Below the pieces are notes generated by a model. That model saw nothing but the letters and a program-made list of their open reading frames with translations. It searched no databases and was not told where the DNA came from. A stretch of 11,283 bases of DNA from a virus (Duplodnaviria; Heunggongvirae; Uroviricota; Caudoviricetes). Positions 5,695 to 9,582 of this stretch are shown one piece after another; positions within the stretch are counted from its first letter, which is position 1, and each line of letters opens with the position of its first letter. Both the position numbers and the translations under genes were made by a program. The DNA lies in the IMG/VR virus record IMGVR_UViG_2675903654_000023, one strand, 5' to 3'.

Positions 5695-5713
5695 ATTGCA
5701 TGGAGAAGATAAG

Positions 5714-5971
5714 ATGCAGCAGTATCACTATCCACTGGAAGACGGATTTACCGAAAGGATTCACACGCCGGGAGGCGTCAGGTCACTGGTGGAGGGATCG
5801 CACTTGATGAAATTACTCCGGGATCTCGATAAGGATGGATTTAATGTCGATGGCCCACTTGCCGAACTGACTGCACTGATTAACTACGTCACCAGCTCAC
5901 AGATGTCTATGCGGGATCTGCAAACACATCTCGACTATTGTGCCGAACAATTACGAAAACAAACCAGATAA
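5714..5971 (+). CDS. Small stand-alone antirepressor C-domain protein (85 aa), probably SOS-controlled
   Basis: RBS GGAG (5702-5705) precedes the ATG at 5714. The protein aligns without gaps over about 72 residues with the shared C-terminal domain of the two larger antirepressor-like proteins, at roughly 45-50% identity by eye (IHTPGGV...LMKLL...DG..V.G..AELT...RDLQTH..Y). The LexA box lies immediately upstream. Confidence 0.6.
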   Translation: MQQYHYPLEDGFTERIHTPGGVRSLVEGSHLMKLLRDLDKDGFNVDGPLAELTALINYVTSSQMSMRDLQTHLDYCAEQLRKQTR

Positions 5972-5974
5972 GGT

Positions 5975-6003
5975 TTGCAATTACCAAGTGGAGTGCTTAT
6001 ATT
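5975..6003 (+). promoter_or_regulatory. Sigma70-type promoter of the plus-arm sRNA-like element
   Basis: Seen directly: -35 TTGCAA (5975-5980), 17-nt spacer, -10 TATATT (5998-6003). It begins 4 nt after the stop codon of the 85-aa gene. Confidence 0.5.
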
Positions 6004-6017
6004 TACCTTTGCGGTAA
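6003..6017. promoter_or_regulatory. Palindromic operator-like site TTACC-N5-GGTAA (copy 2 of 4), overlapping the -10/+1 of the sRNA promoter
   Basis: Seen directly: ATTTACCtttgcGGTAAAT, an extended 7-5-7 palindrome. Confidence 0.5.
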
Positions 6018-6130
6018 ATTTACATCGCACTCCTCTTGTGCCATAGTAATCGGGCACTGGCAAAATCCAGTGCCGGGATTGGCGTCCCGGATTACTACAG
6101 AGGCACATATGCCGCATAAGCGGTTTTTTT
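6010..6130 (+). ncRNA. Candidate structured small RNA / terminated leader (plus arm)
   Basis: Bounded by the promoter above and an intrinsic terminator (GCCGC-ATAA-GCGG followed by seven T, about 6111-6130). The core (about 6004-6097) is more than 95% identical to the inverted copy at 8993-9086. It contains stable hairpins (GGCACTGG-CAAAAT-CCAGTGCC and CCGGGA-TTGGCG-TCCCGG). No conserved ORF spans it. Confidence 0.5.
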
Positions 6131-6225
6131 ATGTGTAAAACGCACCTATTCTATGGTGGGCTGTGTGGGGGCACCGAAAGGTGCGCCGGGTCCTTTGTAG
6201 CCGGTTACGCCAACTCTGCACAGTT

Positions 6226-6256
6226 CACCACCAACCGATTGGCGTCGGTAGTGGTG
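6226..6256 (+). promoter_or_regulatory. Leader hairpin upstream of the Bro-N antirepressor RBS, loop UUGGCG
   Basis: Seen directly: CACCACC-A-ACCGA-TTGGCG-TCGGT-A-GTGGTG. The loop is identical to the hairpin-2 loop of the plus-arm sRNA element. The hairpin ends about 27 nt before the ATG at 6284. Confidence 0.45.
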
Positions 6257-6283
6257 ATTAACCTAACTACAAAGGTGATCACT

Positions 6284-6970
6284 ATGACTGCTAACGTAAC
6301 CCCATCTGTTTTTCATTTTGAATCAGAAGCAACCATTCGAGCCATTGTTATTGATGGAAATCCTTGGTTTGTTGCCAAAGACGTTATTAAAGCTCTTCAA
6401 CTGACAAACCCCACTATGTCAATAAAATCTCTTGATGATGATGAAAGGGCTAAATTTAACTTAGGCCGTCAAGGCGAAACCAATATTATCAACGAGTCAG
6501 GCCTCTACACACTGATCCTCCGCTGCCGCGACGCAGTGACACCAGGCACTATCCCCTACCGCTTTCGTAAATGGGTTACAGGTGAGGTTCTTCCTCAGAT
6601 CCGCCGCACCGGAAGTTACATTAAAAACTCGCTCCCGCAGGAAGAACGCATAAAGATGGTTGCCGACCAGGTAGCCAACGCCACGGCGTCAGCAGTGATG
6701 AAGGCGATGAAGATAGAGAACAAAACCTACAGCGCCCCGCTGAAGCCAGGCTACCGCAGCCTGATTCACTCGCCGTCTGGTGTTCTCGGCCTGACGGAGA
6801 ACTCACTGCTGATGAATCTGCTGAACCAGTTACAGGAAGACGGGCACGACGTATCGGGCGCGGCGGCGGAGCTGACCACCATGTTCTGCTACATCGTCGG
6901 TGTGAGCAAATGCCTGCGTGATATCCAGACGCACGCGGAGTACATCAACGACAAGGCTGGGTTCTTCTGA
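6284..6970 (+). CDS. Antirepressor-like protein: N-terminal Bro-N domain plus shared C-terminal domain
   Basis: Internal ATG of track ORF 6131-6970, with RBS AGGTGA 5 nt upstream. The N-terminus has Bro-N motifs (IRAIVIDGNPWFVAKDV...GLYTLILRCR...FRKWVTGEVLPQIRRTG). The C-terminal roughly 80 aa are identical to those of the convergent gene at 8144-8800. Confidence 0.8.
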   Translation: MTANVTPSVFHFESEATIRAIVIDGNPWFVAKDVIKALQLTNPTMSIKSLDDDERAKFNLGRQGETNIINESGLYTLILRCRDAVTPGTIPYRFRKWVTGEVLPQIRRTGSYIKNSLPQEERIKMVADQVANATASAVMKAMKIENKTYSAPLKPGYRSLIHSPSGVLGLTENSLLMNLLNQLQEDGHDVSGAAAELTTMFCYIVGVSKCLRDIQTHAEYINDKAGFF

Positions 6971-6993
6971 CGGGCGGCGGCACAGGGATGTGC
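6730..6993. repeat. Inner inverted repeat, left arm (partner 8121-8385)
   Basis: Seen directly by reverse-complement comparison. About 230 bp (6763-6993) are near-identical to the reverse complement of 8121-8352, with one mismatch noticed. Identity drops to roughly 90% over the preceding 30 bp and is then lost. It covers the shared C-domain coding sequence plus a 3' hairpin (GGCACAGGGATGTGCC). Confidence 0.85.
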
Positions 6994-7042
6994 CTTTAAA
7001 TAATTCTGTACAGATTGCAGACTGTGGGTGAATAGCGTACTA

Positions 7043-7057
7043 TTACCTCAAGGGTAA
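7043..7057. promoter_or_regulatory. Palindromic operator-like site TTACC-N5-GGTAA (copy 3 of 4), upstream of the central module
   Basis: Seen directly: aTTACCtcaagGGTAAa. It is followed by a second inverted repeat (ACGGATT-N14-AATCCGT, 7059-7086) that overlaps a candidate promoter. Confidence 0.45.
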
Positions 7058-7063
7058 ACGGAT

Positions 7064-7093
7064 TGGTTTCATTTTTATTAATCCGTGTAATGA
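7064..7093 (+). promoter_or_regulatory. Candidate promoter of the central two-gene module
   Basis: Possible -35 TTGGTT (7064-7069), 18-nt spacer, -10 TAATGA (7088-7093). This is a weak call from reading the sequence only. Confidence 0.3.
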
Positions 7094-7117
7094 ACTTATG
7101 AGATATGAGGTAATGTC

Positions 7118-7297
7118 ATGCGAAACGAAAAATTGCAGATGCGTAGAGCGCAAGCTGCCGCAAGACGTTCTTTCAATGGAAGCGTAGAGTACGTAAAAGT
7201 TACTATGACAAAAGATCACGCAAGTCGCGTATCCCGCGCTTTCTTTGATTCTCGTAACAATAAGGAAAATTATGAGTTCGTCTGCGTCGCAGAATGA
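7118..7297 (+). CDS. Small basic protein (59 aa), candidate antitoxin or regulator of the central module
   Basis: Absent from the ORF track, presumably below its length cut-off; hand-translated as MRNEKLQMRRAQAAARRSFNGSVEYVKVTMTKDHASRVSRAFFDSRNNKENYEFVCVAE. Strong RBS GAGG 7 nt upstream of the ATG at 7118. Its 3' end overlaps the start of the next gene by 26 nt in a different frame. Confidence 0.45.
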   Translation: MRNEKLQMRRAQAAARRSFNGSVEYVKVTMTKDHASRVSRAFFDSRNNKENYEFVCVAE

Positions 7298-7817
7298 TAA
7301 AAATCAAGTTGTCAGATATAAGGGTCGAGTGTTGCATACGCAAAATTTCTCGGCCCTTTGTGCATCTGATCTTGAGCTGAAGAAAGTATCTGATGCCTTT
7401 ACCCAGTATTGGAAAACGGGATACCATCCATCTCTTGGTAAAGATGCTGCATTTGCTCGTCCGACAGAAATGCTTAAACTAAATGTCAGGCATACTCATG
7501 TCGATAACCAAGACTATATTCCAGAAGATAGTGATAAAAAACACACTGGTAAAAAATCATCTTGGGATGCATGGAAAAATATAGCGTCTGTACAAGTAAA
7601 ATGCATACCAACAAGTGATTGCTTTTTAGTTTATTCGGTAAATCACAATCGTGATGCGCTGGTTATGTTTTTTGTTGACGCAGATGCTCACAACATAACT
7701 GAGCAAGAAGAGTTTAAAGAGGAAGCAATCACTATCAGTTATCAATTCTTTGAGAAAACAAAAACAGAACCAATGCCTTTAGAAGAAGATCTTTTTTCTG
7801 ATAAATGGAAGGAATAG
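7272..7817 (+). CDS. Hypothetical protein (181 aa), candidate toxin; weak YafO-like resemblance
   Basis: Internal ATG of track ORF 7245-7817, with RBS AAGGA 5 nt upstream. AT-rich coding sequence. Segments (GKDAAF...LNVRHTHV...CFLVYSV...ALVMFFVDADAH) resemble motifs I recall from YafO-family toxins; this is from memory and unverified. An intrinsic terminator follows directly. Confidence 0.55.
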   Translation: MSSSASQNDKNQVVRYKGRVLHTQNFSALCASDLELKKVSDAFTQYWKTGYHPSLGKDAAFARPTEMLKLNVRHTHVDNQDYIPEDSDKKHTGKKSSWDAWKNIASVQVKCIPTSDCFLVYSVNHNRDALVMFFVDADAHNITEQEEFKEEAITISYQFFEKTKTEPMPLEEDLFSDKWKE

Positions 7818-7837
7818 CCCGCAGCGCGGGCTTTTTT
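7817..7837 (+). terminator. Intrinsic terminator of the central module
   Basis: Seen directly: stem GCCCGC (7817-7822), loop AGC, stem GCGGGC (7826-7831), then six T (7832-7837). It overlaps the stop codon. Confidence 0.7.
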
Positions 7838-7909
7838 GTGGACGAAACAAAAGTCAGTGCTACACTCATTGACGCCACATTGAGGTGGCTTATAGATGGA
7901 AATTTCACA

Positions 7910-8071
7910 ATGAAAAAAGCATTTGCTGCACTGTTCGTTTTGTTGTCTCTGGTAGCTTCAACTCAGGCCTTTGCCGGTCGTTGTCAGCACGACAGCGATA
8001 CTGCCGCTGACGGCTCCCGCTGCGGTGGGCGTTCTGCGGATTCCCGCCCGGGCGGCGGTGGCATTCGTTAA
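7910..8071 (+). CDS. Hypothetical small secreted peptide (53 aa precursor, about 31 aa mature, two Cys), possibly leaderless
   Basis: Internal ATG of track ORF 7805-8071. Signal peptide MKKAFAALFVLLSLVASTQAFA followed by a Gly/Arg/Asp-rich tail. A candidate promoter (TTGACG 7869-7874, TATAGA 7891-7896) would place the transcript start only a few nt before the ATG. No convincing Shine-Dalgarno. Coding status is uncertain. Confidence 0.3.
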   Translation: MKKAFAALFVLLSLVASTQAFAGRCQHDSDTAADGSRCGGRSADSRPGGGGIR

Positions 8072-8094
8072 AAACAAGGCCGCGAAAGCGGCCT
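8070..8094 (-). terminator. Candidate intrinsic terminator downstream of the AntA-type antirepressor gene
   Basis: Plus strand AGGCCGC-GAAA-GCGGCCT (8077-8094). On the minus strand this hairpin is followed by TGTTTTT. A 12-bp perfect palindrome GTGACATGTCAC (8095-8106) lies adjacent. Confidence 0.4.
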
Positions 8095-8120
8095 GTGACA
8101 TGTCACGCTAGTTTCGTTTT

Positions 8121-8385
8121 GCACGTCCCTGTGCCGCCGCCCGTCAGAAGAACCCAGCCTTGTCGTTGATGTACTCCGCGTGCGTCTGGATATCACGCAG
8201 GCATTTGCTCACACCGACGATGTAGCAGAACATGGTGGTCAGCTCCGCCGCCGCGCCCGATACGTCGTGCCCGTCTTCCTGTAACTGGTTCAGCAGATTC
8301 ATCAGCAGTGAGTTCTCCGTCAGGCCGAGAACACCAGACGGCGAGTGAATCAAACTGCGGTAGCCGGGCTTCAGTGGGGCGCTGT
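8121..8385. repeat. Inner inverted repeat, right arm (partner 6730-6993)
   Basis: Reverse complement is near-identical to 6763-6993; see the left-arm entry. Confidence 0.85.
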
Positions 8386-8800
8386 ATTCTTTTTTGTCTT
8401 CCAGCTTGATCGCCTCCATAATGGCGGGCATGAAGCCTGACAAGACCTTCTCCACTTTTGTTTCTTGTTGTCTTAAACGTTTCTCGCATTCAATGAAGTA
8501 GCGTCGTACCTGACGACCTTTTTCGTTACGCTCGACCATCGCCAGCTCTTTGGCTGTATCAAGGGTGAGGTGGTACTCTTTGCGGTTGTGGCCGCCTCTA
8601 CCAGATGTTTGCTTTCCCAAATTGGAAAGCAAAATATAGTCTTGATTTTCAATGAATTCGTATTCTGATATGCGATTTGTAATCCATGCTGCAAACACCT
8701 TTTTAACACCTAAAAAAGCGTGCAGATCGCGGGCATTACAAAGTAGGGCTGTTTCGTTAGATATAGTGCCGTTGAATACGGGGATGAGTTGAGCGTTCAT
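8144..8800 (-). CDS. Antirepressor-like protein: N-terminal AntA-type domain plus shared C-terminal domain
   Basis: The N-terminus matches the AntA/AntB antirepressor N-domain pattern (LIPVFNGT...[10 protein letters not shown]...W...EYEF...[27 protein letters not shown]). The C-terminal roughly 80 aa are identical to those of the 6284-6970 product. RBS GGAG 8 nt upstream of the ATG at 8800. Confidence 0.85.
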
Positions 8801-8828
8801 GATGGCGTCTCCACTTAGCGAATTACAT

Positions 8829-8859
8829 CACCACCGCTGAGACCAATCAGATGGTGGTG
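8829..8859 (-). promoter_or_regulatory. Leader hairpin upstream of the AntA-type antirepressor RBS, loop UUGGUC
   Basis: Minus-strand reading: CACCACC-AT-CTGA-TTGGTC-TCAG-C-GGTGGTG. The loop is identical to the hairpin-2 loop of the minus-arm sRNA element, and the stem differs from the plus-arm leader by compensatory changes. Confidence 0.45.
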
Positions 8860-8958
8860 AACTGAACGGAGTTGGTCTTACCGGCCTAAGTGGTACCGGC
8901 GTCCTTTCGGACCCCCATTCAGCCCACCATAATTCTGGCATGACTGTGCTATACGCAT

Positions 8959-9080
8959 AAAAAAAACCACGTCTGGCGTGGTATGCGCCACTTAGTAATC
9001 CGGGAGACCAATCCCGGCACTGGATTTTGCCAGTGCATGATTACTATGGCACAAGAGGAGTGCGATGTAAATTTACCGCA
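8959..9080 (-). ncRNA. Candidate structured small RNA / terminated leader (minus arm)
   Basis: Inverted copy of the 6010-6130 element. Its own intrinsic terminator on the minus strand is ACCACG-CCAGA-CGTGGT followed by eight T (plus coordinates about 8959-8982), different in sequence from the plus-arm terminator. Hairpin-2 reads CCGGGA-TTGGTC-TCCCGG. Confidence 0.5.
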
Positions 9081-9087
9081 AAGGTAA
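9073..9087. promoter_or_regulatory. Palindromic operator-like site TTACC-N5-GGTAA (copy 4 of 4), overlapping the -10/+1 of the minus-arm sRNA promoter
   Basis: Seen directly: TTTACCgcaaaGGTAA. It is part of the outer inverted repeat. Confidence 0.5.
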
Positions 9088-9116
9088 TGATAAGCGCTAA
9101 GAAATATTAAAATCAA
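9087..9116 (-). promoter_or_regulatory. Sigma70-type promoter of the minus-arm sRNA-like element
   Basis: Minus-strand reading: -35 TTGATT (plus 9111-9116), 18-nt spacer, -10 TATCAT (plus 9087-9092). Sequence upstream of the -10 is not homologous to the plus-arm promoter, yet a promoter is retained. Confidence 0.45.
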
Positions 9117-9234
9117 CCATATTTGGTTAATGCGTATAAAAGAGCCAGCAGCGAGAAATTGTGCCGCGACGTAAAATAACGAGCATCTGCTGGCTTACAA
9201 CCAGCGATGTTTCAAATTTGTCACTATTATCAAC

Positions 9235-9582
9235 GTGCCATTCCACGGCGCAGAGCTTTATGTTGTCAATCACAACGGCGAACCGTATACCCCAATGAAA
9301 CCTATCGTTGAGGGAATGGGGCTAGACTGGAAATCTCAACATAAGAAGATTTCTCAACGCTTCTCGAAGGGTATGGTGGAAATCACCATACCTTCTGCCG
9401 GTGGGGTGCAAGCCATGATTTGTATGGCTTTACGAAAATTGGCAGCTTGGTTGAACAGCATCAGCCCTAACAAAGTCCGCCCTGAAATCCGCGAAAGTAT
9501 TGAAACATCAACCGTATCGATATCGACACGGTTGATTATGACGGTAACTTATTTCCGTGTGTCCTATTTCTCCCGCCACTAA
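9235..9582 (+). pseudogene. Probable remnant of an antirepressor N-terminal (P22_AR_N-like) domain gene
   Basis: The track ORF starts at a GTG with no RBS. Residues about 8-85 (LYVVNHNGEPYTPMKPIVEGMGLDWKSQHKKISQRF...LRKLAAWLNSISPNKVRPEIRE) resemble antirepressor N-terminal domains as I recall them. The last roughly 30 residues look like out-of-frame read-through. It ends back-to-back with the convergent 98-aa gene. Confidence 0.35.

Follow-up and report, generated by a model that had tools for sequence, protein, structure and literature searches.

In phages P1 and P7, the immI operon is governed by an antisense RNA, c4 (Citron and Schuster 1990). In this family, a mature RNA of ~77 nucleotides (nt) is freed from its precursor by RNase P and represses ant in trans, and in both phages a C1 operator lies upstream of c4. 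The c4 RNA represses ant by pairing around the ribosome-binding site (RBS), and this control is the basis of heteroimmunity (PMC12197685, PMC8198154). Here we describe a stretch of 11,283 nt from the IMG/VR virus record IMGVR_UViG_2675903654_000023 (Caudoviricetes), referred to throughout as the window, in which two convergent arms, one on each strand, are each very probably a complete RNA control cassette of the P1/P7 c4 (immI-like) type for an antirepressor gene.

A locus with related parts, isrK/orf45/anrP, has been studied in the Salmonella prophage Gifsy-1. There, the isrK transcript reads through its terminator to give an inactive mRNA, and the middle of IsrK pairs with a downstream stretch of ~30 nt, a helix that is supported by the compensatory mutants G28A/C162U and G31A/C159U; acting in trans, the short IsrK RNA switches on translation of the antirepressor, and there is a processed RNA, STnc1160, that is complementary to IsrK (PMC4825925). 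In the published Gifsy-1 model the C4 region is a 45-codon open reading frame (ORF) coupled to anrP and is not named as a c4 homologue, and STnc1160 and the P4 CI RNA are mentioned. In records of APSE phages, a Bro-N gene is already preceded by annotated isrK, C4, a' and b' elements (PMC7313666), and the order of Rfam matches, isrK, c4-a1b1 and C4, is the same in both window arms, P1, P7 and APSE. Two further systems share single traits with the window. As in P22 sar/ant, a small RNA is predicted to control antirepressor translation, but sar is a cis-antisense RNA from the opposite strand, whereas the window RNAs all lie on the same strand and use short a/b address elements (PMC12197685). The P4 CI RNA with seqA and seqC resembles the window in that a processed small RNA would lie between two same-sense target copies within one transcript (PMC4825925).

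A preliminary description of this DNA had singled out identical hairpin loops in a small RNA (sRNA) and in a downstream leader, with a different loop in each arm. All four hairpins are present and fold as described (Table 1). A sequence search of the window placed the plus-arm block GAUUGGCGUC / GATTGGCGTC at positions 6077 and 6237 only and the minus-arm block GAUUGGUCUC / GATTGGTCTC at 9013-9004 and 8848-8839 only; all four copies sit in hairpin loops. For the degenerate pattern GATTGGNNTC the window has five matches, with 0.41 expected, and this number was reached in none of 200 shuffles, so that chance does not account for the recurrence. The fifth match, GATTGGTTTC at 7061-7070 (+), lies beyond the Bro-N gene within a hairpin whose arms are CGGATT...AATCCG and may be due to chance or be a degenerate site resembling b. 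That the sRNA loop and the leader loop are same-sense and do not pair with each other was correctly seen. They are same-sense because both are complementary to a third element, b', which the preliminary description had overlooked: between its two hairpins, each arm has the exact complement of its own loops, which is ACGCCAA for the plus arm and AGACCAA for the minus arm. This element belongs to a C4 antisense RNA (RF01695) inside the so-called leader, so the ‘third RNA’ that had been offered as one possible reader of the loops has a concrete identity, and the analogy that had been drawn with heteroimmune antirepressor systems was well chosen, the system being that of P1/P7 c4, the classic heteroimmune case. 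Compensatory change, which had been claimed for the stems in general, applies between the arms to the leader only: the sRNA-hairpin stems are the same in both arms (CCGGGA/UCCCGG), and the leader hairpin has a single compensated pair, C-G to U-A, which belongs to its inner stem.

The C4 RNA has a tRNA-like fold, in which a 17-bp closing stem encloses two internal hairpins; a' is the loop of the second hairpin and b' is a single-stranded linker. The plus-arm RNA has a minimum free energy (MFE) of -42.2 kcal/mol (z-score -3.96), and the minus-arm RNA is alike in architecture at -41.2 kcal/mol. The scan that detected both arms with RF01695 gave 70.8 bits for P1 and 69.6 bits for P7. Each C4 is preceded by one target copy, b1 followed by a1, and is followed by another, b2 followed by a2. 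In the plus arm, a2 overlaps the Shine-Dalgarno sequence AAGGUGA, which stands 6-7 nt ahead of the ATG at 6284. The motif CACCACC (6226-6232 on the plus strand, 8859-8853 on the minus strand) has two possible partners: it closes the C4 RNA as the 3' strand of its closing stem, and it is also the 5' strand of the b2 outer stem. These two stems are therefore mutually exclusive, and each of them is conserved.

Homology, anatomy, complementarity, covariation and the position of a2 over the Shine-Dalgarno sequence are all observed for the two arms, and the comparison with P1 and P7 can be made element by element. Read directly, the immI regions of P7 (locus L002) and of a P1 (L003) contain b1 GUUUAGCAG, a1, a C4 with a'-b' (CUGCUAA), b2 GUUUAGCAG, a2 and the icd ATG. 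The a1/a'/a2 triplet is ACUUACG / CGUAAGU / ACUUACGAGG in P1 and GAUUGUG / CACAAUC / GAUUGUGAGG in P7; the last letters of a2, GAGG, are the Shine-Dalgarno sequence of icd, and the two phages differ in a only. The window shares with them the order b1-a1, a'-b' and b2-a2 over an RBS, an antirepressor operon, a promoter upstream of all elements and specificity variants that arise through coordinated change of three copies. It differs from them in that it lacks an icd ORF and has a2 on the antirepressor's own Shine-Dalgarno sequence, in that the antirepressors are of the Bro-N and AntA types and not Ant1/2, in that two convergent variants, differing in both a and b, occupy one prophage, and in that this prophage is epsilon15/phiV10-like and not a P1-type plasmid prophage.

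The sRNA upstream of each C4 belongs to the isrK family (RF01394). In the plus arm it consists of a hairpin at 6054-6073, the b1 hairpin, a1 and a Rho-independent terminator with a T run. The c4-a1b1 model (RF03163) overlaps isrK, with 45.1 bits in the plus arm (6041-6093) and 37.6 bits in the minus arm, and the sRNA region is better described by isrK than by c4-a1b1; the complementarity of b1 and a1 to b' and a' is nevertheless present. Conversely, the isrK model matches the a1b1 regions of P1 and P7 at 44-48 bits, and we therefore regard the isrK sRNA as an a1b1 module plus a terminator. The loop of the first hairpin of the c4-a1b1 and isrK models, GCAAAAUC, was considered as a1 and rejected: it is identical in both arms, P1 and P7 and is not complementary to a'. 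The true a1 follows the b1 hairpin on its 3' side.

The Gifsy-1 locus matches the window in its isrK sRNA with terminator, its read-through region and its antirepressor gene, and its b code is that of the plus arm (UUGGCG/CGCCAA). By way of the Rfam consensus numbering, G28 and G31 of the Gifsy-1 mutants should map to b1 UUGGCG, and C159 and C162 to the expected b' CGCCAA. The AUG from which orf45 was taken to start in Gifsy-1 is the one within UAUGGUGGG, the conserved 5' end of C4. An orf45-like coupling was not found in the plus arm, where this AUG (6153) opens a frame of 15 codons that stops within the a' loop (6153-6200). Unlike in the orf45 coupling of Gifsy-1, the window antirepressor has its own Shine-Dalgarno sequence inside a2.

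The preliminary description had expected the loops of sRNA and leader to be correlated in homologous loci. We gathered IMG/VR cassettes by a pattern from the C4 5' end, which gave at least 120 stretches, from which 68 distinct cassettes were used; 29 of the pattern matches were discarded as chance matches in unrelated GC-rich DNA. Alignment A1 comprises 70 sequences, namely IMG/VR cassettes, the window arms, P1 and P7. In it, b1:b' is 98.4% paired and five of the seven pairs are changed on both sides, a result reached by none of 500 shuffles; slid controls gave 25-52% pairing, and sliding the partners by 1-3 columns gave 5-52% overall. For b':b2 the pairing is 98.0%, with six of seven pairs changed on both sides. 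Most of the unpaired b cells that we inspected are alignment shifts (P1, P7, L029); the b' and b2 elements of P1 and P7 are out of register by one or two columns, and so are scored as unpaired. A 6-nt complement of b' is found both upstream and downstream in 98 of 99 cassettes, and the sole exception lies at a locus edge. The correlation thus holds, and so does the proposal that the loops are sequence-specific recognition elements. The structures that present these elements covary too. The C4 closing stem is 99.8% paired over the 70 sequences, with six compensatory pairs, and 91.8% of the cells of the hairpin stems are paired, 11 of 18 pairs being altered on both sides. At column 274, an A-to-G change is tolerated as U-G in the C4 stem, whereas three of five sequences have restored a G-C pair by a compensating change in the outer stem of b2.

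The a elements were tested alignment-free, by the longest complement and with non-cognate controls, the MAFFT columns being too gappy. The longest Watson-Crick match of an a' loop averages 7.4 nt with its own a1 and 8.3 nt with its own a2, as against 4.4 nt with the targets of other cassettes. At least 21 types of a' loop occur, each matching its own a1 and a2, and at least eight b triplets are found in A1, the commonest being UUGGCGU (51/70) and UUGGUCU (11/70). Two cassettes, L012+ (6004-6313) and L015+ (13547-13856), are near-identical to window positions 6013-6322 in backbone and in a code, and yet at all three b sites they have the minus-arm GACCAA type, in b1, in b' and in b2, the last together with its entire inner hairpin. 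This switch apparently reflects modular recombination, possibly with co-resident cassettes as partners. At least six contigs carry two or three cassettes, and no two co-resident cassettes share both a and b: they differ in a in L012 and L015/L016, in b in two cassettes of contig 3300045988_096329, and in both in the window and L122.

Within the window, the plus arm combines UUGGCG with CUACAAAGG and the minus arm UUGGUC with CUAAGUGG. Element-level duplexes of a have energies of -12.4 to -14.2 kcal/mol between cognate partners and -4.2 to -9.2 kcal/mol between arms, and those of b have -9.2 to -10.6 and -3.4 to -5.2 kcal/mol, respectively. Element-level duplexes replaced duplex prediction on long segments, which also favoured cognate over non-cognate pairs but unfolded hairpin stems (GCCGG with CCGG). 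The energies predict little cross-talk between the arms. Since both codes differ, the two arms should act as orthogonal channels, with the Bro-N antirepressor served by one and the AntA antirepressor by the other. For specificity, the a triplet probably matters more than b, because P1 and P7 differ only in a and the arms of L012 and L015/L016 share b and differ in a.

Table 1. Positions of the RNA elements, hairpins, promoter-like sites and antirepressor genes of the two cassettes in the window.
Feature	Position	Strand	Sequence or remark
C4 antisense RNA, plus cassette	6149-6235	+	Rfam RF01695, 76.2 bits (gathering score 45)
C4 antisense RNA, minus cassette	8934-8850	-	Rfam RF01695, 61.2 bits (gathering score 45)
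a' plus	6192-6200	+	CCUUUGUAG, loop of second C4 hairpin
a' minus	8893-8886	-	CCACUUAG
b' plus	6207-6213	+	ACGCCAA, exact complement of b1 and b2 loops
b' minus	8878-8872	-	AGACCAA, exact complement of the loops of its arm
isrK-family sRNA, plus	6054-6130	+	RF01394, 76.8 bits (gathering score 50)
isrK-family sRNA, minus	9036-8960	-	RF01394, 67.7 bits (gathering score 50)
sRNA hairpin, plus	6073-6090	+	CCGGGAUUGGCGUCCCGG, CCGGGA-UUGGCG-UCCCGG, -10.6 kcal/mol
sRNA hairpin, minus	9017-9000	-	CCGGGAUUGGUCUCCCGG, CCGGGA-UUGGUC-UCCCGG, -9.6 kcal/mol
b1 plus	6079-6085	+	UUGGCGU, sRNA hairpin loop
b1 minus	9011-9005	-	UUGGUCU
a1 plus	6095-6103	+	CUACAGAGG, single-stranded; 9 bp with a' including one G-U
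a1 minus	8995-8988	-	CUAAGUGG
Rho-independent terminator after a1, plus	6111-6124	+	followed by T run
Rho-independent terminator after a1, minus	8982-8966	-	followed by T run
Leader b2 hairpin, plus	6226-6256	+	outer stem CACCACC/GGUGGUG; -16.2 kcal/mol for 6226-6257
Inner hairpin of leader, plus	6234-6249	+	ACCGA-UUGGCG-UCGGU
Leader b2 hairpin, minus	8859-8829	-	-14.4 kcal/mol
b2 plus	6239-6245	+	UUGGCGU, leader hairpin loop
b2 minus	8846-8840	-	UUGGUCU
a2 plus	6267-6275	+	CUACAAAGG, perfect complement of a'; 8 nt before ATG 6284
a2 minus	8818-8811	-	CUAAGUGG, then AG, giving Shine-Dalgarno GGAG; upstream of ATG 8800
Promoter-like site, plus	6019-6047	+	TTTACA-17 nt-tgCATAGT; 9/12 matches with TG extension; consensus match only
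Promoter-like site, minus	9071-9043	-	TTTACA-17 nt-tgCATAGT
Antirepressor gene, plus cassette	6284-6970	+	228 amino acids (aa), Bro-N, PF02498, E = 4.4e-20
Antirepressor gene, minus cassette	8800-8144	-	218 aa, AntA/AntB, PF08346, E = 4.2e-26

Taken with what is described for P1 and P7, this anatomy suggests how each cassette would work. A single promoter would transcribe, in order, the terminated isrK-family sRNA, C4, the leader and the antirepressor gene. C4, processed from the read-through transcript as in P1/P7, would pair through b' and a' with b2 and a2 of the leader, where b2, presented in a hairpin loop, would offer a second contact, and the pairing would cover the RBS and keep the antirepressor off. 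The sRNA, with b1 in its hairpin loop followed by a1, would mimic the leader and compete for a' and b', either in cis on the read-through RNA or in trans when free, and would thereby relieve repression, in keeping with the demonstration that IsrK of Gifsy-1 is an activator. The regulation would run in this direction by analogy with P1/P7, the orthogonality of the arms is likewise a prediction, and, to judge from the identity of the genes downstream, the cassettes would control antirepressor genes. In the MFE fold of the full read-through RNA of either arm, b1-a1 is paired with a'-b' in cis, and this predicted helix is the counterpart of the ‘structure A’ described for the isrK transcript in Gifsy-1. 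A more far-reaching version of this scheme, which we regard as an evenly balanced proposition, is that the sole task of the isrK-type sRNA is to sponge up the C4 of its own cassette by mimicking its target, so that three RNAs compete, a decoy a1b1, an antisense a'b' and a target a2b2, under a two-part address code (at least 21 a and at least eight b types) whose modules recombine and of which co-resident cassettes are kept from sharing both parts.

Several points weigh against the c4 interpretation. The locus is known here from sequence alone. Judged by homology, anatomy and complementarity, the window cassettes are members of the C4 and isrK families, but their c4-a1b1 scores stay below the gathering score of 46.7 bits, which P1 and P7 exceed at 55.5 bits. 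Gathering cassettes by the C4 5' end biases the sample towards this subfamily, and the covariation counts come from related sequences whose kinship is ignored. A Rho-independent terminator stands between the promoter and C4, and C4 would therefore need read-through, as in Gifsy-1, or a further promoter. No icd-like ORF was found in the cassettes, and hence they need not follow the P1 route, in which translational repression leads to Rho-dependent polarity. The authors of the Gifsy-1 study favour a cis structural switch with IsrK acting in trans, not a free antisense repressor, and constitutive STnc1160 failed to counteract IsrK in their hands (PMC4825925).

The Gifsy-1 model also supplies the likeliest of the alternatives, namely that the cassettes operate as a cis switch only. 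The C4 region would then be no more than a part of the inactive read-through mRNA in which b1-a1 is paired to a'-b', with no free antisense RNA; the sRNA would activate in trans by displacing this helix, and b2 would merely aid an alternative active or inactive fold. For the Gifsy-1 homologue this model has experimental support (PMC4825925). It also agrees with the cis b1a1:a'b' helix in the full-transcript MFE folds of both arms and with the sharing of CACCACC by the b2 outer stem and the stem that closes C4, which provides for alternative folds. It leaves unexplained, however, that a2 perfectly complements a' right over the Shine-Dalgarno sequence in nearly every cassette, that b2 tracks b', and that the tRNA-like C4 fold is so highly conserved with compensatory changes. 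Moreover, the plus-arm counterpart of orf45 has only 15 codons and ends within the a' loop, and a stable processed RNA downstream of IsrK, STnc1160, exists in Salmonella (PMC4825925). We therefore consider a switch acting purely in cis unlikely. Because the sRNA is an anti-antisense RNA in both, the cis-switch and C4 models are largely compatible.

The preliminary description had named an RNA-binding protein as a possible recogniser of the loops, with a different protein or a different specificity for each arm. The display of the loops on stable hairpins with covarying stems would suit such a protein, and Rfam describes isrK as an Hfq-binding RNA. The proposal is made unnecessary by b', the covarying exact complement in cis that fully accounts for loop identity in all but one of the 99 cassettes; the diversity of b and a' types would demand equally many protein specificities, no candidate gene for an RNA-binding protein lies near the cassettes among the antirepressors, the YafO-like toxin and the small ORFs, and in Gifsy-1 it is compensatory RNA-RNA mutations that restore structure (PMC4825925). 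A protein reader is thus very improbable. Scarcely credible is the view that the shared 10-nt block has no function and merely remains from an old duplication or from exchange between the arms by recombination, or else is a repeat acting at the DNA level, for instance an operator. The arms are indeed inverted repeats (106 nt at 93% and 75 nt at 73%), and mosaic exchange of the b module is evident when L012+ is compared with the plus arm. Against this, the three sites change together although their flanks differ, and pairing is kept throughout the b types; covariation in the stems that carry the loops speaks for selection acting on the RNA; and the b2 site lies within the transcribed leader, away from the promoter.

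Transcription of the plus cassette would start near 6054, where the isrK model begins, if the candidate promoter upstream is used. A palindrome, TTTACC-N5-GGTAAA, adjoins the -35 hexamer of the sRNA promoter in both arms (6002-6018 on the plus strand, 9072-9088 in the minus arm), and in the plus arm it is additionally flanked by GGAGTGC...GCACTCC. By analogy with P1 and P7, the palindrome may be a repressor operator. In six other loci (L025, L030, L043, L044, L050 and L123), an insert of ~40 nt lies between the sRNA terminator and C4 (A1 columns 153-190). The insert of L025 has GGTATAAT, and the remaining inserts differ there; C4 might have its own promoter in the insert-bearing phages.

The two antirepressors are near-identical C-terminally from about residue 147 of the plus protein, and their last ~65 aa are identical. 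An ATG at 6131 is in frame with the plus antirepressor ORF (279 aa) and is without an a2-type Shine-Dalgarno sequence. Upstream of the plus cassette, a 91-aa ORF (5696-5971, +), a homologue of epsilon15 gp19 and phiV10 p24, has 43% identity over 74 aa to the common antirepressor C-terminal domain (E = 2e-16) and is a stand-alone copy of that domain. A 115-aa ORF (9235-9582, +), divergent from the minus-cassette promoter, carries a P22_AR N-terminal antirepressor domain (E = 6.6e-32) and is possibly a truncated third antirepressor. Between the convergent cassettes lies cargo (7118-8071, +): a 59-aa ORF at 7118-7297, possibly an antitoxin, precedes a YafO-family toxin-like ORF at 7245-7817 (Pfam E = 9e-6, just above the cut-off), and an 88-aa ORF at 7805-8071 (+) has an N-terminus resembling a signal peptide.

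The window is an epsilon15/phiV10-like prophage region and is essentially the same as IMG/VR contig 2693429700_000024 (L108). Of 5426 complete E. coli genomes, 896 match parts of the query 5900-9200, a region that also holds the antirepressor and toxin genes, and related DNA occurs in 226 phage records, many Stx phages among them. The 24B_1 small RNA of the Stx phage phi24B, which is of ‘microRNA size’ and is said to control d_ant, was examined as a possible cassette fragment and rejected: the region from lom to vb_24B_43 has no C4 or isrK match. The same phage locus has a weak match to the sok antitoxin at L125 637-798 (HM208303 45636-45797), with 38.4 bits against a gathering score of 59.

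In satellite phage P4, CI RNA pairing causes premature transcription termination of replication genes, unlike the occlusion of an antirepressor RBS. Because the a1b1/a2b2 target duplication of c4 is already known, the window cassettes do not open a new class of regulator. They do indicate that ‘isrK’ or ‘hypothetical’ regions upstream of Bro-N and AntA-type antirepressor genes are to be read as complete c4 cassettes, and they join the IsrK and c4 literatures through one common helix, b1:b'. The predicted orthogonal RNA switch pairs of single prophages, together with the catalogue of address codes, could be used in testing how antisense specificity evolves, and the residual interest lies in the combinatorial, apparently non-redundant address codes of multi-cassette prophages. 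If the sponge reading is true, the ‘c4 repressor’ of P1 and the ‘IsrK activator’ of Gifsy-1 would be one mechanism, and the window would hold a natural orthogonal RNA switch pair.

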